A DNA stretch of 64,000 bases. Source: Amphiscolops sp. MND2022 (taxonomy: Eukaryota). Under the pieces are notes generated by a model that saw only the letters and a program-made list of their open reading frames with translations, was not told where the DNA came from and did no database searches. Shown piece by piece: positions 3,951 to 54,583 of the stretch. The position numbers were made by a program, and so were the translations under genes. Numbering within the stretch: position 1 is the stretch's first letter; each line of letters begins with the position of its first letter. The DNA lies in contig OZ076409.1 of NCBI GenBank assembly GCA_964187785.1, positions 35,588,001 through 35,652,000 on the forward strand. Reading direction: 5' to 3'.

Positions 3951-6900
3951 AAAACTGGAATTCAAAGCAACTTTCACTCAAAAAAAAGTGTTTATGGTGG
4001 GTTTTTGGACTTTTCAATCAAAACACTTTTCTAGTAAATACCGCCCTCCATTTCCTGATTAACCCATTTAACCCTCAAATTTGTTAAATATCGTATTATG
4101 AGAACGTATTTGAGTATTTGTACCCAATTTTAGCCTACTTAGATAGGATAGGCAAAAAAGCCCAAGGTAGTGTATTTCTTGATCACGAAAGTCATGTTGC
4201 TCGTTGTAAATCAGATGAAATACTCTCATGACTTCATATTTACGCATAAATAATTGCTCCTATATTGTTTACTCTATTAGTCGATGTACCTGAGATGCTG
4301 TATAACCATGAAAGAACGGAAAAATTACTTCTTGAAAGCAATTTGAGTGTTTTCAGAAGCTGAAATTTTCAGTTTTCATCACGTATTCGTAAAGTTTTCA
4401 TGAAGATATTGCAAAACAAATAATTTATTGAAAAGCCTTGGATGTAACTATTAATTCAATGACATTTTTACTTGACCGTTCAATTGAATGGGGAATTGAA
4501 TCGGTGGGGAATTAACAGAATAGATCCCAATTTTGATTCGCCAATCAAAGTAAGAGTTATGATCTGGTCTGAAATGATTAGGTAACTGGTAGTAAATTCA
4601 GCAGTTGTCACAAAATAACTGACACAACTGTATTTGAATCATACTTCATATTTCCTCGGTCATGACGCAAGATCCAGGAACGGAACGCCTGAAAAAAATT
4701 GAAAGTTGAAAGCTTTTTTCTTGAACACACGGTAGTCACTTAATCTAACATATATTCTAACGCGATGAATATCATAAAATTCTTTTTAAAAAAAAACGTT
4801 TGAGCCAAACAAAAGGAGCATAATCAGCTCTCCGAGTTTCTGCCCTGGACATTAGAGAGTCAAATTTCTACCTACTCACACTGATTCATTTATCATCAGC
4901 AATCACATTTTAATTACACAGTGAAAGTTTTATTAATCATTATTTGGTTGAAATGAATGATCCAGCAGTATTTTAACAACGGTGAGAAACATTTTATTGG
5001 CAGAACAATGCAAAAAGGTCACCACTTTATGTTATATATAGCTACTGTTATATATATATAAATATGGTTTTCCAGGTATGTTCTGATTTACCTGTGAGAC
5101 TGGTTTCATGACAACAGGTATTATATTCATTTGCAGCAACCAATTATATCCTTTGATTAGTGTCTGTTCAACCGATTTTGATTTGCATTTTGTTCGACAG
5201 TTGGGTTTTGTCAAAAACCCTTTTTTCGATCCTCGCGTTTTTCGTTGTTTCGACTCAACAACGAGTTTTTTAAATTTTGTTGTTCCATTAGATCTCAGTT
5301 GATTACAATGTTCTCGAATTACATCCAAAATGAACAATTCAAAAACTGTATTGAGATGGGTTTTGCGCAGAATATCTTGTAAACTGTCATACTTTTCCTG
5401 AATAAAATGGCTCCACTATTTCACCTCTGTGCCTTTTCAACTGAGTCTATCCCATTACAGACCTAGCGTACGCGTTGGGGAACGACAAACATTTTATTGG
5501 ATAATTTCCCGTTCTCGAGTTTTGAAATGATTATCCTACTACTACAGTTTTTAACGAGCTTTAAGTTTTGCAACACAGCTGGTCAATCATTGAAAACAAC
5601 AATTCCACCCATGAAGCGATAGAGAAAAAAAGAGTTTCCAAAAGTGTTCAGCGTCGAAGTACCATTGTACAATTCTTCAACTCATGGGGCGCAGATCGTT
5701 TACATTTTTAGACATTTTGATTTTCATTTTTGATTCGTTTCTAGTATTGTCGTACCTGTAATGCAGGGTTACATTTACAGTTATATGCGGTTCATTGTTT
5801 GAATTTGCGTGGTTGATTTCATTGGGGTTTATTCTCCGAGTTGAAAAACAAGAGTCAGTCTATCCCGGAGAGACTGTCGACTTTCGAAGATAAGTTCTCT
5901 ATCCATTATAGGATTTCTTTTTGATTGATCTCCCTTTTGGGACCCTGTTCGCTATCTTATTCGTGATCCTCAATCTGTTTCTCGGTAAGATCTGAAGTCT
6001 CGTCTCTGAAACAATCGATCATCAAAAGCTCTTCGTTCATTTTTTTCAATCGAGCTTTTCTTTAAGGCGAGCGATTTTCTTTGGGTTCCTTTCTCGAATG
6101 AAAAAAGTGTTTTGTGTGGAACTTTCAACTAGACTTTTGATAACTCATCCTCAACTCCTTTTTCAACTTGAACAAAAATGGCGCAACTTTGAAAACAGTT
6201 AAGAATTATCTGATCCCGCGTCAGGTACAAATACGTTGCGCTAGACGCAGGGGGGATTTTTTTCCGAGGAGAAAATACAATTAGAATACGCTTCCCCAAG
6301 ACTTCAGCTTCAAATTTGATCACATATTCAGACAGAAAGTGACTTTCAACTTCCTGCCTGGGTCTCAATTCGACGTCCCTTTCTCTTCAATTTACCTTTT
6401 GCCTGGACCCTGAAACCAACGGTCGCACCAATGTACACCAACCTAGCTAACTTACGCGGGAAAGGAAAATATACAAACTGGGAAATGAGTACCAACTTAA
6501 ATGAATACAAAATGAATGAAGAAAATAAATATTTAAAATAATAAATCCAAATATCAACCTACTGATCCTTCTTTTCAACGTATTTATAATCGTTTTTTCC
6601 TCACAAAAATGTTTTGAGGTCTCAATGTGGAATGAACTGAGAAACATCAATGTAAATTTTTGTGCAACTTCCAAGTCTCATGGCCAGAATATGATGGTAG
6701 AGCCTTCAAAGCAATTAGTACAAATATATCTATCATTGTTCACTTGAATTCAGTCAATGGGACAACAGGCGAAATTAAAATAGCTCATGTTAGGCATGTA
6801 CGACTTTTAGTGTTGTTGGTTTTCACCTTTATACCAACAGAATATCAGATTTCATCTGAGACGACATCCCAGACAGTCTACGCATAAATAATAATCGAAC

Positions 6901-9477
6901 AGTACAAAAAAAATTACTTCGACAATTCCAAACGTTTTTCATGACTGTAGAATCAAACTATCGTTCTAATCTGTTCAAACACTTGGGTTCTTTGAAACAA
7001 TCCAGCGGGTCTTTTTTTAACAATCTAACATTGGGACGATTTCTGTTGGCGCCTCAAACGACCTTCAAATAACTTATAGCGAAAATATAGGTCAAAATAG
7101 CCTAAGTATTAGTGCTGTAAAATTGGGTAGAGCAAACTTTGAGCAGTAGTTTTTACCCAACCGACCATATTTGGCCCCTAAAAGCTGTCCACGCCAAAAA
7201 TTGCAAATCGAAGAGAAAATTTTTTTTGTGTTCTATGACCCATTTTTGAGCCTTGCTTCCAAATTTGGTGTACTTTTGAGTTTCTAGCTATGTTTTTGTA
7301 TTTGATCCCTTGAGTAGGTCATATTTGGTTATCCCTACTTCGAAGAGGAAGCCGGTAGAGCTTGTGTAAACTGATTGAAGCTTCTGAGGGCAAATGCTCA
7401 CTCTAATCGTGAACCATTGAACCATAAAATCATGAAAGTGTTTACTGTTGATGTTGATATACAATTATCTTTATATACTTTATGGCCTCGAACGTGGGCA
7501 GTTTGCTTACTTTGTTGTTTTTTGAAAGAGACTTCATGGTACCTATATACTCGATTCTAAACATGACAGTCAATGCAATTTCCTATGCGTCTTAAAAAGC
7601 TTATGAAACTCTCACTGTTTTTTTTGCGCGCAGCCCAAACCATGAACAGACCCATGTAATCACGTTTTTAGACCGTCGAAATAGTGAAAATAGCTAAAAA
7701 GGCTGACAATGGCTTGTTTCAAAAAGGCTTATTTGACAAACCAGGTGTTTACTTAGTAAACGAATTTCTTAGGCAAAATTACCAAGTTAGTTAGTGAGCG
7801 ACATCGTCGATGTAATTGTTCAATTTGGCTAAGTCAGAGTTGATCCCTGGGAGCGAATTTTACTACGTCCCACTTTTGGCCGAAAATATTCTAAGATACA
7901 CTATGAAAAACCAGTGCACTAAGCCAACCTATGAATTCGTCGGCGAAACACGGAAGAAGTCATATGATGTATAAAATTGATAGTCCCTGGGATATTAGGT
8001 CATTTGCGCATATTTTCCGAACCCTATGACGCGTGTCGGAGGAGCACGGACCCTATGTAAAGAAACCCCGAATATTATGCAAAGAGCCACCACCTGACCC
8101 GAAGATCTTGAAACTTGCCAAAGATATTATGTCATGTCTAGAAATAGCATCGATTTGGCCTTGAATCTATAATTAGAATGGGGGCACAGGAAGACGGTCT
8201 GTTATAGGGACAGGAAGTTATAGCAAATGGTTTGAATGACAAGCACTTGTTTACTTATTACTCTATATGAGAGTAATACAGCTTGGTGGACTGGTAGTTC
8301 GCTTGACTATATAATATTAGCAAATACAGCATATTGGATTGGTGGTCCAAGCTGCTAGAGAATACTAGCACGTGATTGGTCAATAATTACCAGAGACTGT
8401 GTGTCGAGTTGACTGGAGTGATTTTCACTTCGAACGCGTTTCCTTTATTGCATACACCTTTTTTTCAGTACTTGTTTCAATTATTAAACTAGAAAGCCAC
8501 AACAATTCAATCTGGTTTACACTAACGCTAGCATAATGCATATTTCACACCAGTGATCTAGAATAATTTACATGTAGAACAAATAAACTCAAGTCCTAAA
8601 GTTATAGGCGAATGGATCTACGGTCCCATGATTACAGGGTAGTACTACGCGTATGAATGGTAGGTAGTTATCACTAGAGGCTATTGGTATCACGTACCGT
8701 CACAGGCGGTAGCCTGCGACAATACATTCAAAAGAGCAATCAATAATTCAATATTTGAGAAAAACTTAATGTTCGCAAAAAAAACAAAAAATTCTTTTTG
8801 TTCGTTTTTTGAGACTTCGTTCTCATTTTTGGTCAACCTGGATTTTTTTGTGACGGATAATACTACCCACAAAGCACAAAATTCAAAACGGAAATGAATG
8901 TCTATGTAGCATACTCTTTATGGTAGAAACAAGTTGAAGAAAAGGTACGAAGTGACCTCAGAAAACCAAAAAATATCGAAAAATTTCCATTTTTTGGAAA
9001 ATTGGTGGCTTTTTTGGACAGTTATTGAACATTGCGTTGACAATGACTCAATTTGCTTGAGGAAGAGAAAGATAACGTTTTTTTAGGTGATGCCCCAAAA
9101 AGCCCCCATGAAAACCTACATTTCTGCAATTTCAATCGTGTAAATCAATTTTCGTACGTTTTTCGTACTTTAAGTGGGAATTATCACAGCGTTCGAAGCA
9201 CAATATCTGCCTCATTTTCTTTTAAAAATGAAAAAGCTGACTCTAATTTTTGAAAGTTACACGAAACGTCCAATCAAAAGCTGAAAAATGTCCATTTTCG
9301 AACGTTTCGTTCTTTTTTTGGATAATCTTCGCCCACTCTTCCAAATTTGAAAGTTTGCTTCCTGGACATACTTTTTCAGAAAACACATTCAGTTTCTTGA
9401 AGCAAGGCGTCAATTGAATTGAAAGGTGGAGAAGTTTTCATGCTCGAGCCTTGAGAAATTGTCGTAGCTTATTTGTT

Positions 9478-10753: not shown

Positions 10754-11129
10754 TGTTGTGTACACAATATGATTGGATTAAAACAAACTAATCTCAAGGC
10801 GCTATGGCGAAATAGGTTAGTGCATTCGGTTCCTATTCCAAAGGTCCGGAGTTCGATTCCCGGAATCTGCGGAACCTTTGGTAAAAATACTAAAATACCG
10901 TTTTCGACTAAAATAATTTTTGAAATAATATATACGAAACTTTGACCTTGCTATCTCGAAACTTTAATTAATGTTTGATAATATTTGTAAACAACCTTTG
11001 TGCCTTTGTCAGTTTCGTTAATTTATACAGCTTTATCATTGTTCTATTGTGTTGCGTTCGATAAAACAGAAAGGTTCGAAATATACCATTCATTTCTTAA
11101 AGTCTTTTGCAAAACGATCTGTAGAATTG
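10754..11129 (+). repeat. BEL-1 5' LTR (portion shared with the 3' LTR; the true LTR probably extends further right)
   Basis: 376 bp match to 19702-20075, with 3 substitutions and a 2-bp indel by eye. It starts with TG and is preceded by GCCTG. Confidence 0.92.
10798..10870 (+). promoter_or_regulatory. tRNA-derived cassette with Pol III A and B boxes inside the 5' LTR
   Basis: GGCGCTA TG GCGAAATAGGTTAGTGC A TTCGG TTCCTAT TCCAA AGGTC CGGAG TTCGATT CCCGG AATCTGC is 73 nt with tRNA spacing. A box TGGCGAAATAGG, B box GTTCGATTCC. The acceptor stem does not pair. Confidence 0.75.
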
Positions 11130-12111
11130 CTCCGAGACTACAGCTATTTTAAGGTGGCCATAGAGAGGCATATACATTACACAGATTTTTATCGAGGCTA
11201 CGGTTGAAGTGGACAAATCAGAGACTGGACAAGCTTTAACTCCTGAACTCGTGACGTCTGACCCCAAGACATGTGCGACCCTTGATGTGACCCAAGCGAA
11301 GAATCAACTGCCCGAACAACGTCTTCCACCCCTCCTATCGCCCGCCTCAGACGTCAGCTGGGTGAAATCATCCACAGAACGGGTTCAAATTAGTGAGCAT
11401 GTTCCACCTCAGGGAGACGAATCCTCCCCGCAGAAGTAAACGAGATTAAACCAGATATTATACGCCCAAAAGCAGACCGAATCGAATGAACAACTATCAT
11501 TGCTGATTCAGCCGAAGGTTCGACGAAATCTTAGCAACTTTCTCGACACCACTAGAACTTCCCCCACTGATGAGCTACCCCCATACAACCCACAGAAGAT
11601 CCCCTGGTTGTTAGTAACCGAAAAAACTCGAAACACATCGCGGTTCTTCAGGATTTAAAATTCCTGAAAAGTTCTTGATGAAAACTTTAAACCCAGAGGC
11701 TTTATTATTTTAATTATTGTGCTAATCTTCGAGATAGCAAAGTTTGTCAAATTCGGGACACTTTTGTGTTATGTAAAACTTCCAGTTTCTTATGAAATTT
11801 GGAAAGGGTGATTGATGAAAAAACCCATAGTAACACTTTCCTAAAAGGCACACAAAAATTGACACCCTTCTTTCAAACAGAACCCAAGAAAGGGTTCAAT
11901 TCGTAATTATCAACTGAAACTCGGCATAAAATTTAGAAAACTGAGCGCTAATTGCATTTTGCTTCTTGTAAAAAAAACTTTGTCCCGAATTTTCCATGTA
12001 ATCTTGTTCCAATTTGAAAAATTGTTGGATCCGCCTTTTGATAATCCGTGTAGCTGAAAAAAAAAATCACAAAAAATATCAGTTTTGCGCGAAGTGTTGC
12101 GAAAAAAACGC

Positions 12112-12714
12112 ATGGTTTTCATATTGGCTGCTAGTTCTTTGCACCATGCAATAGAAACGTTAACTCCCGATGAAAAAGAACGTTATGAAAGCAAAATTGT
12201 CTCTATCCCGGGCCTAAGTCTCAATCCGAACACGAAAAATCCCAAGAAGATTGTTCAAAATTTAAAAGATCTGAAAGATAAAAAAGACATTGTGATTTGG
12301 CATGATGTTTTGAACAATAGTGTTTCGAAACATGATAGCAACCATTTACGTGCGTTATCAGTGTTGGATCTAATTAAAACATTGAAAAATCTTCAAGACA
12401 AGTTTTGTGCTCTGGTGTATTGCCAACGTTACCGCAACCCGTACATTTTCGAAGAATTGAAAGTTTTGCAAACTGATCATGACATCAAAGTGTTTAGTAT
12501 CGTCAAAGATTTTATATCCGTGAAAAAACGAAAGGATCCCGAGATTCTTAAACAATTCAAGGCGTTGCATCAGAGCCCAGAGCTTGAGCTGAAAAATTTG
12601 GATTTCGTTCTTCGTAAAGAGAATCAACTCTCTGCAATAACCGATAAAAGCCGACCCAAACGGCCAAGTAAGCGTGCCCGGAACGCTGCTAAGAGAGCCG
12701 CTGCCTCCTTTTAG
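12112..12714 (+). CDS. Accessory 200-aa ORF in the BEL-1 leader, SGNH/GDSL hydrolase-like with a basic C-terminal tail
   Basis: Uninterrupted ATG-to-TAG ORF. Motif order and spacing resemble SGNH blocks: FILAASSL (I), SIPGL (II), IVIWHDVLNNS (III), KALHQS (V). It ends KSRPKRPSKRARNAAKRAAASF. The fold call is from motif recognition only. Confidence 0.7.
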   Translation: MVFILAASSLHHAIETLTPDEKERYESKIVSIPGLSLNPNTKNPKKIVQNLKDLKDKKDIVIWHDVLNNSVSKHDSNHLRALSVLDLIKTLKNLQDKFCALVYCQRYRNPYIFEELKVLQTDHDIKVFSIVKDFISVKKRKDPEILKQFKALHQSPELELKNLDFVLRKENQLSAITDKSRPKRPSKRARNAAKRAAASF

Positions 12715-12727
12715 TCTCAGTTGACAA

Positions 12728-12740
12728 CCCCCCCCCCCCC
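12728..12740 (+). repeat. C13 homopolymer just after the accessory ORF stop
   Basis: GACAA followed by 13 C and TTCCAG. Confidence 0.9.
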
Positions 12741-13137
12741 TTCCAGCTGTCGAGACAGTGTCCGAACTTCACTGATCGGTTGAAGTTTCTTCAGCTCTTC
12801 CTCCTTCTTTCAGAGTTGTGTCCAGTCTTGACTGACTGGTTGATACTCTGAAAGATCGTTTCGTCCCTCACCCGCACCACCGTCAACTGAGACCGCGTTG
12901 AGTCGACGCGACTTTGAGTTTATCGTGTTCCGTCCTCGTAGTCTGTGACTACTTTTAACTTAAAACAAAAAAATTGCCAGTTTCTTTGTAGAAGCACTGT
13001 ACAAACACAGTGTTGTCACCGATAAACACCGTTCTTTCTTCTACCGAACTTTTTCTTGAACTGTGTCCAAACTTAATTGTTTGGTTGACGTCTGAAAAAG
13101 TACAAACGCGCACCGATCCTCAAATTTGGCTACGGTC

Positions 13138-16100
13138 ATGTCTGACCCCGTTCACGAAAAGGTGCAAAAGTTGTATGACAGTCGCGCGAAAGCCGAAGCC
13201 GACCTGAACAGGTATCAAAAAGACGTGACAGAAGCAGTAAACAATGCCGATAGACGAGTCCGCGTCGAACGGTTGGTCACTTCTTGCGAAGAGGCTATGA
13301 CAAAAGCTTTCGCTAAGAACGAACAGCTACTCGAGCTTGCCAAGAAAACCAACGACCCGGCAACTGTCACAGCAGACTTAGAAAAATGGTTGAACGTCAC
13401 GAGCATACAAAATGATGGAATTTTGAGAAGCGCAAGGGAATATATCGATCAATGTCCCAAAACAGATAATTCTTCGCAAACTTCAGTCAAAGCTGCCACC
13501 GTGAAGACTAAGTCTAGCAAAATTTCAAGCAGCAAAGCGTCGAAAACTCCAAGTCAGCGCCAACGAGACTTGCTTATTGCCAAACACAAGCGAGAAGAAG
13601 TAGAAAGACAAAACGAAGCTGCTTTACGACTAGCTAAACAAAAGCAAGAGCTGGAGCTTGAACAACTGCAAGAAGAGAACCGCAAACGACTTGCAGAGGC
13701 GCATCTAGTTGAACTTGAACTTCAAGAAGACCCATCTGAAGCTAACGAAGATGCTCATGGGATTCTTTCGCGTTTAAGCAGAACAACAGACGCTAGTGAA
13801 ACACGGCGAGTTAGCGACTGGGTTAACAACTCGCCAATCGTTACCACGACTCAACATGAGACGGTAACAGCGGTGACTGCAAGTCTAGCTACTTCTGCCT
13901 CAAATACTACCGCTTTGATCCCATCTCAGCAACCTCCGGTTAATGTCTCTCGGCCGATTTTCGCACCAAGTGATCCCAATGAAACAAACGTGGCAGTACA
14001 ACTACCAACAACTACCGTTCCATCAATGAGTTTAAATCACACTCCTGCGATACAAACTCAGACTCCTCCATTGACAGCGCAAAACTTGGGGAATATCGGA
14101 CCTTCAACATCAGCTGTCATTGTACAACAACAAGTTCAACCGACAATCATCCCGACCCAAACTGGAAGTTTCAATGCGCAAGTTTTGCCGCCACAAACGA
14201 CAACACGGATGCCCACGTTCACAATGCCGGTGAACCACATCCTCCCAAACTTGTCCGCATGGACCTTCCCGAACCCGACTGTTACCACCGCACCGATTGT
14301 AACAACGATTCCGCCCCCGACACAGCCGACGGCACCTACTTTCATGCTGTTTGCTCACGCGCCAACCTATGCTGTTCCAACCGTACCCGTTACCGCTGGT
14401 GGAACTGTTTATTATATACCCCCAGCAACCGTTACAACGCCAATTGTGTACAGTACAACACAACCGACGACTTCCCTTAGTCCAACAGCCGCTACATTTG
14501 TGCCACCCGGAACGTTAACGACTATGCAACCAAGCACAACCGGATTCACGATACAAGATCTTGCATTGTTGTTAGCTTCAACGAAGAAAGACCATGTTCC
14601 AGGGTGGAAACTAGCACAATATAACGGCGACCCGATTCAATGGCATGAATGGTTCGGCCAGTTTAAAAGTGCTAAAGACTCAGTACCACTAACAGACGAC
14701 GTCAAGTTAACATACCTCAAGACTCTTGTAACTGGCAAAGCAAAGACGGCTATCGCTGAATTTGCTTACTGCGGAGCAATGTATAGAGACGCCCTAAAGA
14801 CACTAGAACGAAAATTTGGACAGCCGCAGGCTGTAGTAACTGCTTATCTGGATAAGCTGGCAAGCTTTCCTCCTGTCAAGATGCACAACAGTGAGAGCAT
14901 CATCAGTTACTCAGCAATACTTTGTTCTCTAGTCGGGGTTTTCCGATCTCTAAACTACGTCCAAGACCTGTCAAGCGCATCATTGCTTGGACAAGCCGTT
15001 CAAAAGCTTCCGCCAAACATGAAAGAAGCATGGTCACTGCACACAGTGAGGCGAACTTTGGACAGACCGACGCTCATTGATTTCAATGACTGGCTCAAAG
15101 ACAAAGCCGAAGCGCATGAGCGCATGAAGTCTCTGCCCAACAAAGCGAAACCTGAAGAAAGTAACAACGTGACTGTAATTAAGACTAAAACTGCTTCCAA
15201 GGTTTTCGCAACGACGACTTCTAGTCAACAAAGTGCCAGCGCCAAAGTTAAGAATGACAAACCGCCTAACACTTGTGCTGCTTGTAAAGAAAAACATCCT
15301 TTGTGGAGATGTCCAGCATTCAGAGGAAAAACACCCACAGAGAGAGCAAGAATTGTAGCTGACAATAAGCTTTGCTTTTCATGCTTCAACCAAAATCACA
15401 CGTTTCGCCAGTGCCCCCAACCCCGCAAGTGTACGAAAGATGGATGCGGGAGTTCACACAACACTTTCTTGCACGGAGCTGACAGGATTTTTGCCAAGAA
15501 AGTCACTAGCGTGAACAAGGACAAAACTGAAACATCTGGTTGTATTGGAACATCAATGAACAACGAAAGATCAGACGAGAGCTCAGGCATGCCTTCCATT
15601 GCCGATGTCAAAGGCCTATTACAAGTAACGGAAGTTGAACTTCACTCGAACGGCAAAAGCGAAAAAGTCCTAGCACTGTGTGATTCTGCCTGCAGCCATT
15701 CCTGGATCTCAGCGAATCTGGCAACGAAGTTGAACGTACACGGCACCCCGACCAAGCTTACTGTCCATGGCATAAATTCCAACCAAGTCGTAGACACGCA
15801 ACTGGTGGAGCTTAAGTTGACACCCGTTCATTCGGGTGGCTCTTGCTCTCCCTTTGTTGTTAAACCGTACGTCAGGGAAGACCTCAAAGTCGGAACTGAC
15901 ACCATCGATGTCGAACTTTTGAAAACAAAGTACCCCCATTTGCAACCAATCTCTTTGAAAAGGTACAGCTACGCCGATGTTGAAATGATACTAGGTCAGG
16001 ATGTTTTCCACTCAATCCGCCCGCTGGAGTATTTTGATTCCGACCGCAAAACTGCTCCAGTTGCCGTTCGTTTACCGTTGGGTTGGGTTTTGAGTGGACC

Positions 16101-19100
16101 GCTCCCCTCGTCGTCAGGTCTCTATTCAACCTGTTTTAAAGCTGTTGCTTCCAACAAGGAATTGGACTCCGAACTTGCCGACCAACTCCGAAGCTGGTAC
16201 GATATCGAATCGTATGGAGCGTACAAACAAGTAGATTCGCGTTCCGCAGCCGATGCGAGAGCGTTGGAAATACTTGAAGAAACGACTTACCACGATGGTA
16301 ACCGATACCATGTGGGAATGTTGTGGACCGAAGCCGACAGTAGTTTGCCGAATAACTACTTTTCCGCGCTCGTGCAGCTGAAGTCGTTAGAACGTCGCCT
16401 CGACAAAGATCCTGAATTGAAACAACTTTATGCCAAAACAATTCACGACGACTTCGACAAAGGTTACATCACCAAAGTTGACAAAAGCGACTGTTTCAAA
16501 TTAGACCAACCCCGCGAGTGGTACCTGCCACACCATCCTGTAGTGCACCCGCACAAACCTGGCAAAGTTCGCAGAGTATTGAATGGCGCAGCAAGGTTCC
16601 AGGGCCAATCTTTGAACAACGCCTTGTTAACCGGACCGGACTTGCTACAAAGTTTGATACACATACTGATCCGCTTTCGTCAACACAAGTACGCCGTCTC
16701 TGCCGATATCGAAGGTATGTTTCTTCAAGTTGGAGTCATACCAAAAGATCAACCTTCACTTCGTTTTCTGTGGCGGGAAGACCCAGCTGCAGAAATCGCT
16801 GTGTATCAGTACGTCCGGCACATCTTCGGGTCGAAGGACTCACCAACATGTGCGAACTACGCACTGAAGCGTACTGGTAGCGATAACCAAGACGCTTTCC
16901 CTGAAGCAGCGAAAAGCGTTCATCGCAATTTTTACATGGACGACTACTTGGAATCAAGCCCTACGGTCGAAGAAGCCAGTAACAAAGCAAAGGACTTGGT
17001 GGCACTGCTTGCAAAAGGTGGCTTTAATCTAACTAAGTTTGTTTCCAACATTAACCACCTTTCAGCCGAACTGCAACAAAGCGGCGAACTAGCACCGACC
17101 GATGAGAAGGTGATTCCGAAACCAGACGAGTCCTCACATGTCTTGGGACTTAAATGGAATCATGCCTGCGACACCCTCGTAGTAAGTCGGGGAACGAGCC
17201 CTGTTACGAACAAGAAACTTACTCAACGAAAGGTACTGAGCGTAGTTTCAGCTGTCTACGATCCCATTGGACTCGTTGCTCCATTTACCGTCCAATCAAG
17301 ACTGTTGTTGAAAGACATCTGGAGATTAAGTGGTCAACAGTGGGATGACGATCTGCCAGACGAAATCGTAACTAAGTTCAACGAATGGAACAAGGAACTG
17401 CCAACTTTGAGCGAAATTCAAATCCCACGGAGCTTTTTCGAAGAGCGAGTTGAAACCTTGGAGCTGCATATGTTCTGTGACAGCTCTCAAGATGTCTTCA
17501 GCGCCGTCGCTTTTCTACGAGGAAAAGTTGCCACCACGATTGGTTCCACAACAGAGTTAGCTTTCGTCTTTGGGAAAGCCAGAGTACCACCCATGAAAGC
17601 CCTTACGATCCCGAAGCTTGAACTACAAGCCTCGTTGTTTGCTGCACGACTCCGAAAAGAAATTGAAAATGCGCTAACGGTCAGAGTTGCTAACACTTTC
17701 ATGTGGACGGACAGCACGACGGTCCTTCAGTGGCTCCATTCTTTAGAGAAGCAACCGGTGTTTGTAACCAACCGCGTGGCCGAAATCCTGGAACTAACAA
17801 CAGTGGATGAATGGAATTATGTTAAATCAAGTGACAACCCCGCTGATGCAGGAACGCGTGGTCTTTCAGCCAACTCACTTCGTGACAGTCCTTGGCTCAA
17901 AGGTCCTTCATTCTTGCGAACACACGACTGGCCGTTCAAACCACCAAAAGAAGTTGAGGTCAAATTGAAAACGAAAAAGTTGGACACTTCCCTTTCGGAA
18001 CAAGAAACTTCTGAATTTTTGACAGCTTTAAGTGCAACTGTGATCGGCATCGCGACAACTTTCGAGTGGCAGAAGTACAGCTCGTACGAGAAACTTCTGC
18101 GCGTTGTTGCTTACATTTTGCGCCTACTGCCAAAAAACGAAGGTTACCGTTCCGACTCCGGTTTAGTAACTGACCCAAATGAAATGCGAAATGCTGACTT
18201 GAGACTTTTCTATCTCATCCAACAAGAGTCATTTCCCGTCGAACTGAAGTGCTTGCTAAAAAAATCCCCCGGCAGCAACTCTTCTAAATTTTCCCAATTC
18301 TCCCCTTTCATTGGGCCTCAAGGCCTACAGCGAGCAACCGGTCGGACCAAACAACTAACAGTTTCCAACTTCGACGCAAAACACCCTATTTTACTGGACA
18401 GCCGTCACCCCGCCGTACGCTTGTACTTAGAGCAGCTCCATGAAACGCATTGCCATCAGGGTGTCGACTACATGAGGGCGTTGGTGCAGCAACAGTTCGC
18501 CATCGTCAAGCTTAGAACCGCCCTGAGGTCAATTGTCTCCAAATGTGTCACTTGCCGCAAACGTCGAGCGGAAACTCTTAATCCGATAATGTCCGACCTT
18601 CCTCGGGAAAGACTAGCATTTAAAGAGCGTCCATTTACGAACACTGGAATTGACTATTTTGGTCCGTTTTACGTAGCTGTGAAAAGATCAACCGAAAAAC
18701 GATGGGGATTCCTATTCACTTGCTTAACAACAAGAGCTGTCCATTTTGAAGTTGTCCCGTCAATGGACACTAGTAGCTGTGTTATGGGGATCGAAAGATT
18801 TGCTGCCTGTCGGGGCGTCCCATCTGTTTTGTGGTCTGACAACGGAACCAATTTCATCGCCAGTGAAAAGGAGTTGCTACAAAACGTGTCAGCGTGGAAT
18901 CAACATATTCTGTCTGAAGCTTTGGTCAAAAAACGGATCCACTGGAAGTTCAATCCTCCCAGTGCTCCCCACCATGGAGGTGTCTGGGAACGAATTGTCA
19001 GGAGCTTCAAACACGTTTTTTACGCAATTCTTGGAAACCGTCGCCTAATCGACGAGATATTAACAACTACCTTTTGTCTTGTAGAACAGAGTCTCAATTC

Positions 19101-19542
19101 CCGCCCACTGGTGCCCGTTAGCTCCGACGCTACGGATTTTGACGCCTTGACACCCAACCACTTCCTCTTGGGAACCGCGGGTTCCACAATGCCATCGCAC
19201 CAAAGAGCCGACGTAGACCACAGAAAACGCTACGCACGCGCGCAAGCGTACTCAGATGCAATTTGGGACCGTTGGCTCAAAGACTACGTTCCGTCGCTTA
19301 ACCGCCGTTCGAAGTGGTCAACCCAACCAGATCGAGATCACAAGACCGGTGACCTTGTCTGGATTGTGGAGCCTACGAGTCCACGAGGACATTACCCACT
19401 TGCACGTGTGGTCAAGCTGAACTACGGTACCGACGCTGTCGCTCGTTCTGCGGAACTGAAAACCGCAACAGGAAACCTTGTTCGACCCGTTGTCAAACTT
19501 GCACCCGTTCTCCCGTCCCCCGATTCCCCCAATCTTACTTAA
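13138..19542 (+). CDS. BEL/Pao Gag-Pol polyprotein (Gag, three Cys-His knuckles, protease, RT, RNase H/peptidase A17, integrase, DUF5641)
   Basis: First ATG at 13138 in ORF 13126-19542. Motifs: YNGDPIQWHEWFGQF (DUF1759); CAACKEKHPLWRC, CFSCFNQNHTFRQC, CTKDGCGSSHNTFLH; LCDSACSHSW (protease); ADIEGMF and YMDD (RT); FCDSS and PKLEL; H-H-C-C zinc finger, GIDYFGP, SDNGTNF, GGVWER (integrase); WLKDYVPSL. Confidence 0.97.
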   Translation: MSDPVHEKVQKLYDSRAKAEADLNRYQKDVTEAVNNADRRVRVERLVTSCEEAMTKAFAKNEQLLELAKKTNDPATVTADLEKWLNVTSIQNDGILRSAREYIDQCPKTDNSSQTSVKAATVKTKSSKISSSKASKTPSQRQRDLLIAKHKREEVERQNEAALRLAKQKQELELEQLQEENRKRLAEAHLVELELQEDPSEANEDAHGILSRLSRTTDASETRRVSDWVNNSPIVTTTQHETVTAVTASLATSASNTTALIPSQQPPVNVSRPIFAPSDPNETNVAVQLPTTTVPSMSLNHTPAIQTQTPPLTAQNLGNIGPSTSAVIVQQQVQPTIIPTQTGSFNAQVLPPQTTTRMPTFTMPVNHILPNLSAWTFPNPTVTTAPIVTTIPPPTQPTAPTFMLFAHAPTYAVPTVPVTAGGTVYYIPPATVTTPIVYSTTQPTTSLSPTAATFVPPGTLTTMQPSTTGFTIQDLALLLASTKKDHVPGWKLAQYNGDPIQWHEWFGQFKSAKDSVPLTDDVKLTYLKTLVTGKAKTAIAEFAYCGAMYRDALKTLERKFGQPQAVVTAYLDKLASFPPVKMHNSESIISYSAILCSLVGVFRSLNYVQDLSSASLLGQAVQKLPPNMKEAWSLHTVRRTLDRPTLIDFNDWLKDKAEAHERMKSLPNKAKPEESNNVTVIKTKTASKVFATTTSSQQSASAKVKNDKPPNTCAACKEKHPLWRCPAFRGKTPTERARIVADNKLCFSCFNQNHTFRQCPQPRKCTKDGCGSSHNTFLHGADRIFAKKVTSVNKDKTETSGCIGTSMNNERSDESSGMPSIADVKGLLQVTEVELHSNGKSEKVLALCDSACSHSWISANLATKLNVHGTPTKLTVHGINSNQVVDTQLVELKLTPVHSGGSCSPFVVKPYVREDLKVGTDTIDVELLKTKYPHLQPISLKRYSYADVEMILGQDVFHSIRPLEYFDSDRKTAPVAVRLPLGWVLSGPLPSSSGLYSTCFKAVASNKELDSELADQLRSWYDIESYGAYKQVDSRSAADARALEILEETTYHDGNRYHVGMLWTEADSSLPNNYFSALVQLKSLERRLDKDPELKQLYAKTIHDDFDKGYITKVDKSDCFKLDQPREWYLPHHPVVHPHKPGKVRRVLNGAARFQGQSLNNALLTGPDLLQSLIHILIRFRQHKYAVSADIEGMFLQVGVIPKDQPSLRFLWREDPAAEIAVYQYVRHIFGSKDSPTCANYALKRTGSDNQDAFPEAAKSVHRNFYMDDYLESSPTVEEASNKAKDLVALLAKGGFNLTKFVSNINHLSAELQQSGELAPTDEKVIPKPDESSHVLGLKWNHACDTLVVSRGTSPVTNKKLTQRKVLSVVSAVYDPIGLVAPFTVQSRLLLKDIWRLSGQQWDDDLPDEIVTKFNEWNKELPTLSEIQIPRSFFEERVETLELHMFCDSSQDVFSAVAFLRGKVATTIGSTTELAFVFGKARVPPMKALTIPKLELQASLFAARLRKEIENALTVRVANTFMWTDSTTVLQWLHSLEKQPVFVTNRVAEILELTTVDEWNYVKSSDNPADAGTRGLSANSLRDSPWLKGPSFLRTHDWPFKPPKEVEVKLKTKKLDTSLSEQETSEFLTALSATVIGIATTFEWQKYSSYEKLLRVVAYILRLLPKNEGYRSDSGLVTDPNEMRNADLRLFYLIQQESFPVELKCLLKKSPGSNSSKFSQFSPFIGPQGLQRATGRTKQLTVSNFDAKHPILLDSRHPAVRLYLEQLHETHCHQGVDYMRALVQQQFAIVKLRTALRSIVSKCVTCRKRRAETLNPIMSDLPRERLAFKERPFTNTGIDYFGPFYVAVKRSTEKRWGFLFTCLTTRAVHFEVVPSMDTSSCVMGIERFAACRGVPSVLWSDNGTNFIASEKELLQNVSAWNQHILSEALVKKRIHWKFNPPSAPHHGGVWERIVRSFKHVFYAILGNRRLIDEILTTTFCLVEQSLNSRPLVPVSSDATDFDALTPNHFLLGTAGSTMPSHQRADVDHRKRYARAQAYSDAIWDRWLKDYVPSLNRRSKWSTQPDRDHKTGDLVWIVEPTSPRGHYPLARVVKLNYGTDAVARSAELKTATGNLVRPVVKLAPVLPSPDSPNLT

Positions 19543-19689: not shown

Positions 19690-19701
19690 GGGCCCGGAGG
19701 A
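19690..19701 (+). promoter_or_regulatory. BEL-1 polypurine tract
   Basis: GGGCCCGGAGGA directly before the TG of the 3' LTR, a BEL-type GC-interrupted PPT. Confidence 0.8.
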
Positions 19702-20075
19702 TGTTGTGTACACAATATGATTGGATTAAAACAAACTAATCTCAAGGCGCTATGGCAAAATAGGTTAGTGCGTTCGGTTCCTATTCCAAAGGTCCGGAGT
19801 TCGATTCCCGGAATCTGCGGAACCTTTGGTAAAAATACTAAAATACCGTTTTCGACTAAAATACTTTTTGAAATAATATATACGAAACTTTGACCTTGCT
19901 ATCTCGAAACTTTAATTTGTTTGATAATATTTGTAAACAACCTTTGTGCCTTTGTCAGTTTCGTTAATTTATACAGCTTTATCATTGTTCTATTGTGTTG
20001 CGTTCGATAAAACAGAAAGGTTCGAAATATACCATTCATTTCTTAAAGTCTTTTGCAAAACGATCTGTAGAATTG
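19702..20075 (+). repeat. BEL-1 3' LTR, truncated at its 3' end
   Basis: Matches 10754-11129, then diverges after GTAGAATTG with no terminal CA and no GCCTG target-site copy. Confidence 0.92.
19746..19818 (+). promoter_or_regulatory. tRNA-derived Pol III-type cassette inside the 3' LTR
   Basis: Second copy of 10798-10870 with two substitutions. GGTTAGTGCGTTCGG here is closer to the tRNA-Asn D-arm/anticodon-stem sequence. Confidence 0.75.
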
Positions 20076-20270
20076 TCCTCGCACTAGGACCTTTCTCAGA
20101 AAATAAAAAACATTAGGCAAGCCAGCGAGAATTTTGACCTTGCTGAGAAAAAAATGCGCGTAGCTATATTACTTTTCATTTCATTCGTAGGATTTTAGGG
20201 ACAAAGTTTTCCTATCGTGAAGGTTTTCAAATAATCGTGAAGTCGTTCGGATTTGATAACCAATACTTGC

Positions 20271-21030
20271 CTCGGAGCACTGTAGGGTAAAGTTCAGGTG
20301 TGTAGGTGAACAAAAGGTCAAATGCAGCGGTGACCATTCCCTTTCCCACCATGGCAAATGCGATCTGAAACACGCCCCCTGCTATGGGCGCTGTGAACGG
20401 CAAAGTGAAGCATGCTGCTGAGGAGAGTAAAAGGCAAACATAAAAGGCCACTTTCCGACCATACTTGTCCATGGCGAATGCAACGAGCCATACTGGAAAC
20501 TCACAAATGGCTAACAAAATGGAATTGATATACGGGCTTCCACTGATGCCACCAACTCCAAAGGTCAACCCAAAGTACACCAAAGATACGGTGAACCATG
20601 AGCATATTTGACCTCCTGACAGCATGAAGGCGGGAAAAGTCCGGAAAAGGTCAAGTATGGATGCTGTGTCATCTAGCTTCGAGCCTGGTCTCTTTTTGAT
20701 CTCTAGGTCATCCAGGGGCTCCGGTGATTTCATTGATAACACCATTCCAGTCGATGTCTCAGTCTTTTCACTCTTTGCTGATCCGTTTGCTGACAGCCTT
20801 ATCGTTGATGGGTCGTTTCCGTTGCGTTCAGCGATTAAGCACAAAACCTTTTCAGCTTCGCGGAATCGTTTTCGGGAGTTCAGCCACATTGGGCTTTCAG
20901 GGATAAAAACAGCGAATATAAACCAAATTGGCACAGGCACTGCTGACATAATCATGATCTGCAACCTCCAGGAGGACCTGAACAAGTATCCGATGACAGC
21001 CCCGATTATTTCCCCAATAGCGTAAATAAC
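20271..21030 (-). CDS. SLC22-like transporter exon 3 (TM5-TM10)
   Basis: Encodes VIYAIGEIIGAVIGYLFRSSWRLQ...IPESPMWL...WFTVSLVYFGL...MDKYGRK...YTPELYPTVLR. Acceptor cttttaAG|GTT, donor CGAG|GCAAGT. Confidence 0.92.
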
Positions 21031-21471
21031 CTTAAAAGCGAACCTCTGCGATTAATCTACTGTTCAACATAGAAAAATTTCGTGATTCCGATGTAGTTGA
21101 TAATTCGCAAACACCACAATCACGCACGGGTGGAAGCTTCTAATTTTTATGAAACAAATAAAATAATTGAAAAGCCATAACTTCTAGAGTAAGCTTACCA
21201 AAAGTGTACGCTTTTTTTCTTGCTTTTATCCGATTTTAACTTGTTTGGCTAGTATCAAACTAATCAAAGAAATCGTTTTTGACCTATCGGCCATGCGGTC
21301 ATTTTGTATCTCACTATTTTGTTAGGATTCCAAATTATTCACGATACGAAAGACCCTTTTAATCTCAAAATCTTTTTGTGAGAAGGGAAAAGTTTTGACC
21401 GAAGGAAGTTTCCAGATGAAAAATAATTGTGAGTTGTCTTCCTGGATATAGTGAATCAGAAGTTTGCTTTC

Positions 21472-21875
21472 CATTGCTCCCATGGACAACTGGGCGAGGT
21501 ATTCTTTTTTCACTGTTTCAGCCATTAGAATGTAAATGGGTCCGCAGAATCCTCCATAAAACAGCCCATTCAAAAAGCGGAAACAGGTATAAAACCAAAT
21601 GTTTGGAGCAAAAGCCGTTGTTGCGCTGAAAGCAGCAAATAAAGGACAGCAAATTAGAAAAATTGTTTTCCGGCCAAACCGATCGCTTGCGCGGCCAGAC
21701 AGAATTAAGGAAATCATGTTCGCGAACCAGAAAACAGAATTTGAAAGCGAAGACATCACTTGGTTACTTCCACAAGACAAATCAAACTCTGCTACGGTCG
21801 ATTTGACGTCTTGCTTATAAACATATAACTGGCAATCTTCGATGCATTTTTTGTCGAAGCTTTGATTGGACAAAA
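21472..21875 (-). CDS. SLC22-like transporter exon 2 (extracellular loop to TM4)
   Basis: Encodes KCIEDCQLYVY...STVAEFDLSC...SGRASDRFGRK (MFS motif A)...RFLNG...LMAETV. Acceptor gatgcAG|TT; an alternative acceptor would start the exon at 21900. The 3' end is inferred at ATG|GAAAGC. Confidence 0.88.
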
Positions 21876-22864
21876 CTGCATCAGTGCGTTGCAGTGATAG
21901 CTAGGTATACAATACTTAACAAGTTTCCTGCATTAGGTGCCTAAATTATAATCGCCTTGGCATGGAAAATTAATTTATACCAAAAAACCACCATAATTTT
22001 ATATTGACGAACTGGTTAAACTAAATTACCTTTAAACGCCTAAAAAGCTTCATAACGTCAATGAGCCCATAAAGTTTTCATTTTTAAGTCTTCCTTATCC
22101 TGAAAGGTTCCTTTTTGGCTTTTTTTGTTACTGTAAAATTTCAGTTCATATTGTTTATCACAAATTGGGCGGAACTCGCATCTAACCAATGTCAAGTTTC
22201 TGTATCTTTTCAAATTGAACTATAATAGTGCTGTTCTAGACAAAACGTTTAAATCGATGAAAAATGTGCTTTTTTGGAGGAGTTAATGTTATAGCCGATT
22301 TTTATTCGATCTTCGTCTGACGTTCATCCGAATTGTCTTACGTGTTCCCAAGAAAAGTATGGGTTTCAGCCAAGACCAGTATCTTTTCTATTTGAGCAAT
22401 AATGAAAGAGTTGTCTTTTATAAAACAAATTGAGCTACGAACTATATTTTGTCTAGCGAGGACGAAACCAGGGGACGTTTTTTGAACTGCCAGTATGGAA
22501 TTTATTAAACATATTGGCATGAGCAAGTTTTCAGATCTATAAAAATTTTTCAGTCAGTGTTTTTGTTACAAAAAGTGCCCGGACATCACAGTTACAAGTT
22601 TTTGACCTCATACTGAATGGTTGATTTTTAAAGAAGTTTTGCGAGAAAAATATTTGGCGGAAGAGTTTCATAAGTACCCAAATCTTCCTAAACTAAATAA
22701 GTTGATGAACTTGAGTTGCACCTCTAAATTGTATAAGTTATTCAAGTTTTGCAAACAAATTACGAACTATGTTCGCTGTAAAATGCAAGCTCTGTAATTT
22801 GTCAGCTCGAACAGGGCAACGAATACGAATTTAAATATTCATTCATTCATTCATTACTCGACTT

Positions 22865-22937
22865 GGCAGTAACTTGACCCGGTGGTTAAGATGCGTGGCT
22901 ACCCAAGGGAAGCTCGTAGGTTCGAATCCCACTCGGA
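22865..22937 (+). repeat. tRNA-derived (Leu/Ser-like) SINE-type head preceded by (ATTC)4
   Basis: A box TGACCCGGTGGTTAAG and T arm GTAGG-TTCGAAT-CCCAC (B box GGTTCGAATCC). No pairing acceptor stem. The microsatellite is at 22837-22855. Confidence 0.6.
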
Positions 22938-23589
22938 ACCAAAAATTTTTGTCGTTGCAAAGTTTGGCGGTATCGACAGTACGACTTTTTCAGCACTGTG
23001 CGATTTCTCAAGTTTTTCCTTTATTGTTCGTTTTTACCCTGTTTCTACTTAGAAAGCAAGTTTTTAAGTTTTTACAGCCTGAAAAAAATCTGTAGATTTT
23101 TCGGGCACAATTCGACTTTCTAGAGAAGATTTTCCCATCATTATGGGTTCATTGTTTCCAGTTAGAGAAAAAGGGGTTCGACTCCGAAGAGCGCTTTTGT
23201 TTATTCGGCACTCTGGAATCTACGAGGTTTTCCTAAAAGCCACCCTGAAACATTCATTAGACTTTGCACTTTTTGGGCCTTGAGCCGGGCGCCGACTTAG
23301 GGACGTGTCCGTTTTGGTAGTTTAGTGGTTAGGGTGAGATGCTCTGTTTAGTGAAAGAGACCAAAGGGTTCCCATTTTGGATTTTTCCAGCACCGTGCGA
23401 ATAATCCCGTTTTTTTGTGAACTTTGAAATTTTTGAGATCATTTTTTGAACAATTTTTTCACAATTTTCAGTTTTTTGAGATTTTTTTTAAAACGGAAAA
23501 CAGTTTTCCCGATCCTTGAGAAGACCTTTTTGGATATTTTTCTGGTCCTTCGGAACTGATGAGAGATATTTCTCAGTATTGTGGAAAAA

Positions 23590-24565
23590 CAATGTATCAG
23601 TTTTTTATTTTCCGCCCATATTTCATATGGGAAAGGAAAATATTTAAATCAAACGGGTTTTTTTACAAAATTTGCCAAGAATTATTGTTTACCTAATATG
23701 AAGAAGTACATTCACAGAATTCAACTGACATAAATTGAGTTCCATGCGATATGTATTTGTAAAGATTTTTGGACTTTTTTGGGAATGACGGAAATGACCC
23801 CATAATGACCCAAAAATGTTCAAAACATTTCAAAAAAAATCACAAAAATTCAAAACTTTCCCAATTTTCACTGTTTTCATGCATTTTTTGCCATTTTTCG
23901 ATAAACATCGTCGATTAGAATGTTCAAAACGTTCAACAAGGCACGAATTCGTTGTCCAATAGTATTCTGAAGAGATAAATGCGGTTTTTTAAAAGAAAAA
24001 TTACCAAAAAAATGACAAAAATTCCAAAATTTTTCGACTTTTAACGTTTTAATGCAATTTTTGTCATTTTTTCGATAAACATCGTGGATTAGAATGTTGA
24101 AAACGTTCAACAAGGCACGAACTCGTTGTCCAATAGTATTCTTTAAGGAGATAAATGCGTTTTTTCAAAAAGAAAAATTACCCCAAAAATGATAAAAAAA
24201 TTCCAAAATTTTTCGACTTTTAACGTTTTTATGCAATTTTTGTCAAATTTTCGATTAGACTTCGTGGATTAGAATGTTGAAAACGCTCAGCGTGACAGGA
24301 ATGGCAGGAATTCGTTGTCCAGTATGCTTTTCCGAAGAGATAATGGCTGTTTTCTAAATGAAAAATATATCAATTGAAACCGAAAATGACAAAAAACCCA
24401 AAATTTTCCAATTTTCAAAGTTTTTATGCAATTTTTGTCAAATTTTCGACAGACTTCGTAGATTGGAATGTTGAAAAGAGTCAACAAGGAACAAATTTGT
24501 TGTCCAGTAGTCTTTTTCGAAGAGATTTGGGGCGGAAAATATCCCGCTGGTCCGCGGGCGTCTTG
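23590..24565 (+). mobile_element. Putative non-autonomous Helitron-like element with about 4 internal 174-194-bp tandem units
   Basis: The anchor TTAGAATGTT(C/G)AAAACG recurs near 23915, 24089, 24269 and 24463. The element ends with a CCCGC-TGGTCC-GCGGG hairpin (24543-24558) and CTTG|T. The 5' end is undefined. Confidence 0.55.
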
Positions 24566-25285
24566 TTGTATAAAAATATCAGTATTTAAATGACTCTTAA
24601 CGAATTTGCTGCCCCGGTATTTTTGATGGTTTCAATTTAAGAACCCGTTTGCAAACGTGAGAGGTTCCGTCTCTGGATGATTTCGCCACTGTGTGATGTT
24701 TTTTGAAAAAAAGTTCTTGAAAAAAAATCAAAATTAGGTTTTTGCGGTTTTTAGTTTGTCCTTTTAACCCTGAAATGCCCCCCGATGAAAAATGTCTGCT
24801 GTAACTCTGTACGAGACATTTAGCAGTTCCACTGAGTCTTTCGTTGTTATATACATTATATCGGATTATTTACTGACGTTCCAAGATCGTTTACCGGTTA
24901 ATTGGTGATTATCATTTACAATTGGTAAATGAAATTCGGGAGCTTACAAAAAATAAACTAGGTGTAAAGCTTGAAAGCTTCAGCTAAATTCTGAACTGAA
25001 GCTATTCTAAGCTTAGCATTTTAATCGCTAAGTTTGCAAATTACACAAATTTGGAAGACATCCGTTGAAAACTGGAATATTTCAAATAAACGACAAATTT
25101 CAAAGGATCGTTTCCAAAAATTTTGGTTCCACTTCATTTGAAGAAGGAACAAATCATATTACTGCCACTCGAACTTCAACTCGAATTACAGCCAGAAAAA
25201 AAATCAGGTATGGATGAGAAACGAACCCCGACATCTCACAAAGTGGGTATAGCAGTGTCCGGACACTTGCAACTAGATCACTTTA

Positions 25286-25401
25286 GCTGTTTTGGTATTG
25301 GTATGGCTATTTTGGTATTGACTATTTTGGCATATTGGATATTATGGCATTTGTTGTTTTGACCTTGGCTGTTTTGACTTTGGTTATTTTGTCCTGCCAC
25401 C
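25286..25401 (+). repeat. About 15-bp degenerate tandem repeats (GCTATTTTGGTATTG-like), probably subterminal repeats of a DNA transposon
   Basis: Seven to eight (G/A)CT(A/G)TTTTGG/GAC units ending GTCCTGCCACC. Confidence 0.6.
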
Positions 25402-25404
25402 TAT

Positions 25405-25772
25405 GGGAACATTTGCTACTATGTAGAACATTTGCTACTAGGCCATTTCCTACTACGACATTTTCTACAACATGCAAAATGTTACTAGGACATTTGCTAC
25501 AATTGAAGTTCGACTAAGCTATTACTGCTAACTGGCGTATTGGGTGCTACTGCAGAGTGAGTAGTGAAACCAATTTGAGACTTTAAAAAATGAAGTTTGC
25601 TGGAATTTGGCACAACATTGGTCAAAATTGCCGGTTAATCGAGTCGTTATAAGTGGATTTGCTTGTGTTTTCAGATTCAAAATCAGAAAATTTGACTAAC
25701 CGTCCCATATGTAACAGCTTATATCCCATAGCTAAAATTAGTAGCAAATAGACTCTAGTAGCAAATGTCCTG
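25405..25772. mobile_element. MITE-like element with inverted ends and subterminal ACATTTGCTACTA repeats
   Basis: The left end GGGAACATTTGCTACTA with about 5 tandem variants faces the right end TAGTAGCAAATGTCCTG, its approximate reverse complement. Confidence 0.45.
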
Positions 25773-25837
25773 TAACTGTAATAGCCAACTGGGTTACCGA
25801 ACGTGATAGCTGCCAAAAGTTCTCCGAGTATGGCACG

Positions 25838-25891
25838 AAGTGGGAAAATGGTATTGGGAGGTTATAACCTCCCAATACCATTTTCCCACTT
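25838..25891. repeat. Perfect 54-bp palindrome with no spacer
   Basis: AAGTGGGAAAATGGTATTGGGAGGTTA|TAACCTCCCAATACCATTTTCCCACTT; the 27-bp arms are exact reverse complements. Confidence 0.95.
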
Positions 25892-26265
25892 AGTTAAATT
25901 TCCTCCCTAATACGATTTCATCGAAATTTTTGTTAAACTCTATCATGAAAACTATTTCAAAAGATTCACGGCCTTTTTGGGCTGCCACTTTTCGATGATG
26001 ATTGCAATTTGTATCGAATGTTCTAATGAAACATGCAAAAAACTTAAAACACAGTGAAACGTACTCCTCTCAATGCCTCAGCGGTAAATCACAGAGAAAG
26101 TTTGTACATTCTATTGCACGTAACTTTTATAGAGTTTTTGTTTACTTTTTAGTTTACCATTGTGCTTTCAGATGAACTTCAAAACTATCCGTGGAGCGTA
26201 TAACGCTTTGATAATTGCATATGGAAACAGTTCGCTTGGACGTTTAGTAGAAGACAGCAACACAC

Positions 26266-28111: not shown

Positions 28112-28144
28112 TGATTAAATTCGACAACCGTTTTTCAATGGTTG

Positions 28145-28329: not shown

Positions 28330-28391
28330 TTCCCCCTTCTGTAATTGGAGGAGAATCATCGAATGAGTATCCGTTGCTGTCCATTTTGGTG

Positions 28392-54581: not shown

Positions 54582-54583
54582 TT

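Follow-up and report, generated by a model that had tools for sequence, protein, structure and literature searches.

ORF0, a 200-amino-acid ORF that stands ahead of gag in a young BEL/Pao retrotransposon, is a real gene under purifying selection, and it encodes an SGNH-fold protein that lies outside the Pfam GDSL families and is not an ORF1p of the ZfL2-1 type. It starts with an ATG on the plus strand of the window (the whole 64,000-nucleotide stretch of DNA that was analysed), in the same frame as gag-pol and 423 nt upstream of it, with stops between the two. This layout is as a preliminary description, made from the letters of the window, had claimed. SGNH esterases are known from transposons; what appears to be new is the upstream ORF0 layout and the occurrence of an SGNH protein in BEL/Pao elements, which gain an upstream accessory ORF that Pfam-based annotation would overlook.

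The carrier element and selection on ORF0

The domain set of the intact gag-pol (Peptidase_A17, E 1.7e-41; DUF1759; DUF5641; RT; integrase zinc finger) places the carrier element in BEL/Pao. Its two LTRs are 98.7% identical over 376 columns (5' side 10754-11129), which indicates that the insertion is recent. The element is arranged as follows:

10754-11142, plus strand: 5' LTR, TG...CA; the end at 11142 is inferred from sister copies
11152-11168, plus strand: PBS-like motif, present at 24 of the 30 family loci and located 790-1070 nt 5' of the ORF0 start
11170-12111, plus strand: hypervariable leader, long and containing 10 ATGs ahead of ORF0 (from the ATG count and leader grouping)
12112-12714, plus strand: ORF0, a stand-alone member of family A with an SGNH fold (from the ORF call, model, conservation and dN/dS)
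12715-13137, plus strand: spacer between ORF0 and gag, strongly folding, 0 ATG (from the ATG count and folding z)
13138-19542, plus strand: BEL/Pao gag-pol, 2134 aa (from domain matches)
19690-19701, plus strand: polypurine tract (from the sequence; similar tracts lie 5' of the 3' LTR in other full-length copies)
19702-20075, plus strand: 3' LTR, lacking about 13 nt at its 3' end relative to the 5' LTR

The window copy is slightly damaged. Its ORF0 is two codons shorter than those of its sisters (200 versus 202 aa), its 3' LTR lacks the last 13 or so nucleotides, and no target-site duplication is visible around it, whereas such duplications are visible in related copies (for example, L066, L068, L070, L071 and L077). 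The 5' LTR also contains a tRNA-like segment at approximately 10805-10860, with A and B boxes read by eye, and similar boxes were found in the LTRs of BEL lineages L064 (1325), L067 (1262) and L077 (1319), making 3 of 13 by pattern. Such segments could be a Pol III promoter or a captured SINE head; Rfam and ARAGORN searches of the LTR and leader returned nothing significant. On the other side of the element, exons of an MFS/sugar-transporter-family gene (20230-26458, minus strand) come to within about 150 nt of the 3' LTR.

A search of the genome that contains the window returned 3395 ORF0 candidates. Among the best-scoring 150, a sample biased towards intact copies, 126 matches had no internal stop and were 71-100% identical to the query. 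The preliminary description had proposed a check for homologues at the same position, and the N-terminus of gag was found downstream of ORF0 in all 29 of the closest sister copies that were fetched (30 of 30 loci including the window), although in one of them (L021) the gag match covers 42 residues only, owing to a tandem duplication. The pooled dN/dS of ORF0 across 30 copies was 0.17 (pairwise NG86; the pairs are not independent), which is far from 1 and close to the value of approximately 0.15 (0.145) for gag residues 1-230 in 28 copies. Shifted-frame controls gave 1.26 and 1.74. The proposed dN/dS check thus came out in favour of purifying selection. ORF0 evolves somewhat faster than gag, with a median dN of 0.054 versus 0.022. 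Elsewhere in the family, dN/dS was 0.47 in the Gypsy carriers, 0.41 and 0.31 in two LINE groups and 0.10 in a second BEL pair; in one BEL trio dS was saturated, so that the ratio is uninformative.

Fold and active site of the ORF0 protein

An AlphaFold2 model built from a 100-sequence alignment had a pLDDT of 96.3 and a pTM of 0.88, and showed five strands with flanking helices in a flavodoxin-like α/β arrangement. When the model was compared with 48,161 chains, SGNH proteins occupied the top of the list of fold matches, the best being 7ddy (Z 11.5, rmsd 3.6, 157 residues aligned), and a second fold search agreed. The top Foldseek match was 3p94 (E 8.5e-4), and the top matches were GDSL lipases, an acetylxylan esterase and PAF-AH. 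The SGNH/GDSL-like fold put forward in the preliminary description is therefore borne out by the model and by both kinds of structural match. That description had also named a different fold, homologues unlinked to BEL, and near-neutral dN/dS with stops as outcomes contrary to its reading, and none of the three was found.

The protein consists of an SGNH core (residues 1-175, with S8, G34, H64, N68/N69, H153 and E159) and a basic tail (residues 176-200). The AASSL, PG, NNS and ALHQS blocks that had been proposed as SGNH motifs are all present, and conservation across 100 homologues supports the assignment of Ser, Gly, Asn and His to them: Ser8 of block I is kept in 90 of 94 sequences, Gly34 of block II in 92 of 98 and His153 of block V in 96 of 99. 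Block III retains its asparagines (N68, 84/100; N69, 92/100), but its Gly position is Val, Ile, Leu or Ala. High conservation was also seen at H64 (95/100), D65 (92/99) and E159 (90/100), and C104 is kept in 71 of 100. In the model, S8 lies after strand 1 and H153 before the last core helix, as is usual for SGNH proteins; the active-site geometry is read from these predicted secondary-structure positions. Ser8 and His153 are invariant in a 24-sequence alignment across element classes.

The Asp of DxxH is missing, as had been noted: the residue three before the His is not Asp in the window protein, and Asp is not among the six commonest residues at this position (150) in the 100 homologues. This Asp is not obligatory for SGNH proteins, because it is the catalytic acid in 23 of 30 SGNH structures, with a main-chain oxygen serving instead in five (PMC10792757). 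D65 or E159 could be a candidate replacement for the acid. The Lys/Arg-rich tail is likewise as described (9 Lys or Arg among the last 25 residues); almost all of 24 diverse family A members retain it, and the whole protein has a pI of 9.8.

Sequence searches placed the protein apart from annotated families. Pfam (Lipase_GDSL and Lipase_GDSL_2) gave no SGNH match for the window protein, and for the 100 homologues at E <= 0.1 no SGNH family was among the 25 listed of 48 families matched. ESM Atlas neighbours carried PF13472 on 21-46% of members with scores of 0.90-0.92, which we treat as a lead only. A PDB sequence search with one query (A2) gave 0 matches; a single match from another query (A4) was set aside as a chance match. 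The ZfL2-1 ORF1p esterase structure (4C1B) was not among the 50 entries listed in any fold search, which excludes nothing.

Carriers, exchange and expression layout

Many matches in the same genome were likewise obtained with distant ORF0 homologues (35-40% identity). We examined 20 hand-picked loci and found 11 BEL elements, 2 Gypsy elements of one family, 6 LINEs and 1 truncated LINE 5' end. The BEL carriers have pol sequences 23-70% identical to that of the window, the Gypsy carriers have a PR-RT-RH-IN order, and the LINE carriers encode an endonuclease and RT, to which some of them add a PHD ORF1. In every carrier ORF0 is a frame of its own on the sense strand, occupies the first slot and is followed by a normal gag or ORF1; a longer form appeared once among 7999 candidates scored, which is weak evidence. 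The proposal of a BEL accessory gene therefore held in that ORF0 is linked to BEL gag, but not in being specific to BEL, since the same family also heads Gypsy and LINE elements.

We also surveyed in the reverse direction, starting from pol. Elements were drawn from the 150 best Pfam scorers, with BEL taken at roughly even steps and Gypsy, Copia and LINE picked for long frames, near-copies included. Family A was found upstream in 3 of 20 BEL, 0 of 20 Gypsy, 0 of 15 Copia and 7 of 20 LINE elements. A second SGNH family, which we call family B, held the leader slot in 4 of 20 BEL (two of them broken) and 3 of 20 LINE elements. Neither family was present in 13 of the 20 BEL, any of the 20 Gypsy or any of the 15 Copia elements sampled, and at least 4 of the 10 remaining LINEs resemble 5'-truncated copies of A-bearing families. 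ORF0 is thus patchy in its presence and dispensable to its carriers. The window itself holds a second BEL/Pao element (53549-62150) with LTRs of approximately 1.03 kb (96.9% identical) and a frameshifted gag-pol, in which neither family A nor family B was detected. A weak family A profile match elsewhere in the window (5035-5415, minus strand, E 5.6e-4) is probably spurious, its translation bearing a closer resemblance to the end of a LINE ORF2.

Family B is a canonical SGNH ORF, with a GDS-like block, PG/GG, GGN and DxxH, and has 951 candidates in the genome. Three of four members tested matched Pfam Lipase_GDSL_2, below the cut-off. A profile comparison of the two families gave no similarity, the family B profile being shallow, and families A and B are linked by fold only. 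Examples in the leader slots of BEL and LINE elements are:

L084, 3107-3739: family B ORF
L087, 3481-4083: family B ORF
L133, 1817-2398: family B ORF
L139, 1906-2460: family B ORF

A separate arrangement was seen in L176, a young BEL element (LTRs 1-1248 and 7924-9171, 99.6% identical; 2214-aa gag-pol) that has a canonical SGNH frame of family B without an ATG inside both of its 1.25-kb LTRs. Many pairs similar to these LTR frames, about 8 kb apart, are among the family B candidates.

Phylogenies point to exchange of ORF0 between carriers. In a family A tree of 40 rows, BEL-borne ORF0 needs four changes and a single BEL clade appears in 0% of bootstrap trees; the AU test rejected a single BEL clade (p=2e-6). 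Long branches meet in this tree, and none of its starred branches demands a second origin, so that the number of transfers is uncertain. In a BEL RT tree of 21 rows, family A, family B and neither alternate among sisters, and family A requires four changes. At four loci (L007, L010, L026 and L028) ORF0 is close to that of the window (dS 0.4-0.6) and gag is saturated (dS >2). Taken jointly with the esterase and membrane-tether reading set out below, we give about even credence to ORF0 being a swappable first cistron exchanged among the retrotransposons of this host.

The leader ahead of ORF0 is 36-476 nt long in the 11 lineages whose 5' end is defined, and their leaders together have 5 ATGs where 36 are expected. 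The spacers of 19 lineages contain 11 ATGs versus 47 expected and 56 on the opposite strand, and relative to shuffles they fold with z <= -3 in 9 of 19 lineages, compared with 1 of 19 for ORF interiors; the window spacer gave -5.5 and -7.0 in two runs. Covariation among sister spacers was not above the null (0.51 versus 0.47), so no specific structure is supported. Such ATG-depleted, often folding spacers fit a bicistronic RNA on which gag or ORF1 is reached by reinitiation or internal entry.

The window family is an exception. Its leader is hypervariable, approximately 0.8-1.05 kb long, and has 5-13 ATGs upstream of ORF0, an arrangement that simple scanning does not explain. The 24 leaders of this family fall into 15 groups, one of which was left out of the motif count as half-shared. 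A donor-like GTGAGT was found in 11 of the other 14 versus 2.6 expected, a count reached in 0 of 500 simulations; the window's own leader has no such hexamer. Leader positions 11728-11740 are the exact complement of LTR positions 10948-10960 (13 nt), the patch most conserved among sister families. The leader motif recurs in representatives of 12 of the 14 groups, for the most part at a distance of 46-120 nt 3' of the donor-like hexamer. This motif could mark a long-range pairing, a promoter element or a small intron, and for the family as a whole a small leader intron or internal start is plausible. A splice acceptor after ORF0 was rejected as a general rule (9 of 26 lineages versus 9.1 expected); the window family keeps an acceptor-like site there in 30 of 30 near-copies.

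Outside the genome, candidate ORF0 relatives were found at 18 metagenome loci, lying ahead of LINE ORF1/ORF2 in 10, without context in 5 and downstream of a GIY-YIG ORF in 2; the last (L194) was a bacterial false positive. None of the 18 had a BEL context, and the BEL linkage is therefore shown for the window's genome only. The two loci with a distant family A ORF 3' of the GIY-YIG ORF (L192, 2-4208; L193, 2-1766) are possibly borne by a Helitron-like carrier; L192 also encodes a PIF1 helicase. Among viral contigs, none of 13 pattern matches was confirmed as a relative.

Possible functions and known systems

Why transposons repeatedly gain SGNH esterases is a question that has stood since the work on CR1 and ZfL2-1. 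Carriers with and without capsids narrow the function of ORF0 to a step that LTR and non-LTR elements share. LINEs are described as making no Gag capsid (PMC3905857), and a shared benefit should therefore concern the RNA, the RNP or host defence; an action on particles is less likely than one on an RNA or RNP step. With moderate confidence, and by analogy with ZfL2-1 ORF1p, we favour a reading in which ORF0 would be an accessory esterase with a basic tail that serves a capsid-independent step, such as tethering RNPs to membranes. The ZfL2-1 esterase is slow and binds acidic phospholipids, and its protein has an arginine-rich motif linked to RNA binding (PMC3905857). On this model, ORF0 would be the first cistron of the element RNA to be translated, and ribosomes would get to gag or ORF1 by reinitiation or internal entry through the ATG-poor, often structured spacer; the long-leader family of the window may require a splice or an internal start. 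The protein would act as a slow esterase with a Ser-His dyad, its tail would bind element RNA and its basic SGNH body acidic phospholipids, and the RNP might thereby be tethered or routed on membranes, a step that would help LTR and non-LTR elements alike without being essential. Against this reading stand the family-wide absence of the DxxH Asp, the changed Gly position of block III, the upstream ATGs of the window family, the null-level spacer covariation, the long branches of the ORF0 tree and the lack of either SGNH family in most elements sampled by pol.

Other explanations account for parts of these data. ORF0 might be a counter-defence protein: its tail would be a nuclear or granule localisation signal, and its enzyme would deacylate or counteract a silencing or restriction factor of the host, from which any retroelement with the gene would profit. 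This fits a dispensable gene that is common to unrelated element classes in one host and swapped between lineages, its faster evolution relative to gag and the holding of the same slot by two unrelated SGNH families; the pooled dN/dS is nevertheless well below 1, with no diversifying signal in the pooled estimates, and the ZfL2-1 esterase had no histone-peptide deacetylase activity (PMC3905857), and we regard the idea as rather doubtful. The missing DxxH Asp and altered block III, together with the pI and the presence of the OSK domain of Oskar among the fold matches, would also suit an enzymatically dead RNA-binding or scaffold protein, an extra RNA chaperone resembling OSK. Ser8 and His153 are, however, among the most conserved columns, whereas OSK is described as having no triad (PMC10792757), and LINE carriers already have a PHD/zinc-knuckle ORF1, all of which makes a dead protein unlikely.

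We think it very improbable that ORF0 is a hitchhiker that moves on its own, inserts at the 5' ends of retrotransposons and does nothing for the element that carries it. Its patchiness on the BEL RT tree, with four changes for family A, would be expected of such an insert, yet we saw no termini or target-site duplication of its own and no transposase or RT function, and ORF0 is always in the sense orientation and in the first slot; the sole opposite-strand match (L117) falls outside that Gypsy element. The fixed slot and orientation and the lack of termini largely refute this reading. A chance or neutral ORF, for which the absence of SGNH families from the 25 listed Pfam families would speak, has next to no probability and is refuted by the contrast between the dN/dS of ORF0 and its shifted-frame controls and by the confident SGNH fold. 

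A more speculative reading, which we hold to be less likely than not but well short of improbable, is that the host lineage imposes a barrier on retrotransposition, either a membrane or cell-to-cell step into the germline or an acylation-based defence. LTR and non-LTR elements might have met it with a portable front-end esterase cistron, recruited at least twice from different SGNH families and traded across superfamilies. If true, the cistron would be an accessory or anti-defence module that works irrespective of element class and has an enzymatic target.

Among accessory ORFs of retrotransposons, those of the ORF3 type lie downstream of pol, and the plant Gypsy element Ogre has an extra ORF1 upstream of gag-pol. 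SGNH domains are known in ORF1p of CR1, L2, RTEX and Penelope elements (PMC3905857 and PMC4120745). ZfL2-1 ORF1p (PDB 4C1B) shares with ORF0 the SGNH fold, an arginine-rich motif and a 5' position, and the spacing of Ser and His is similar (S143 to H282, 139 residues; S8 to H153 in ORF0, 145). By spacing only, H191 and N195 of ZfL2-1 correspond to H64 and N68, and the transposon-specific H191 and S228 fit H64 and C104. The ZfL2-1 esterase, however, lies within an ORF1p that has a coiled coil, no structured RNA-binding domains and a full Asp-His-Ser triad (PMC3905857). ORF0 instead stands as a frame of its own, with a normal gag or a PHD/zinc-knuckle ORF1 downstream; it has no DxxH Asp and is also found in LTR elements.

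The closest precedent for sharing is the GDSL ORF3 of Vesta, a bdelloid LTR element, which like ORF0 is a stand-alone SGNH ORF and is shared with the unrelated Athena/Terminon elements in one host (PMC5408684). Vesta ORF3 is canonical and recognised by profiles, and no departure from neutrality is reported for it; ORF0, by contrast, lies upstream of gag in BEL/Pao, is invisible to Pfam and is under clear purifying selection. The amphibian Ngaro elements also have an extra SGNH hydrolase ORF of putative function, placed after the tyrosine recombinase in an order of elements different from that of ORF0 carriers (PMC9210276). The ORF0 of the plant Gypsy element Retrosat2 resembles ours in being an extra ORF beside gag-pol, with no function or SGNH fold assigned and no sharing with LINEs reported in the available text of PMC3485330. 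The OSK domain (5a4a, Z 8.2) has the SGNH fold without the triad (PMC10792757), whereas ORF0 keeps Ser and His. Our literature search, which covered sources other than Repbase, subscription papers and supplements, returned no report of an SGNH protein in BEL/Pao or of a stand-alone esterase upstream of a normal gag or ORF1, and the words 'esterase' and 'hydrolase' are absent from PMC8556966.

This genome offers a natural experiment, with many selected copies, sisters that have family A, family B or neither, and carriers with or without capsids, and the small stand-alone ORF0 protein is an easy assay target. Elsewhere in the window, a tandem array at 35750-46200 consists of five units of approximately 2 kb with an inner 23-nt repeat, and lies between long, strand-skewed inverted arms (28000-33000 and 47900-51000) that are approximately 72-80% complementary.
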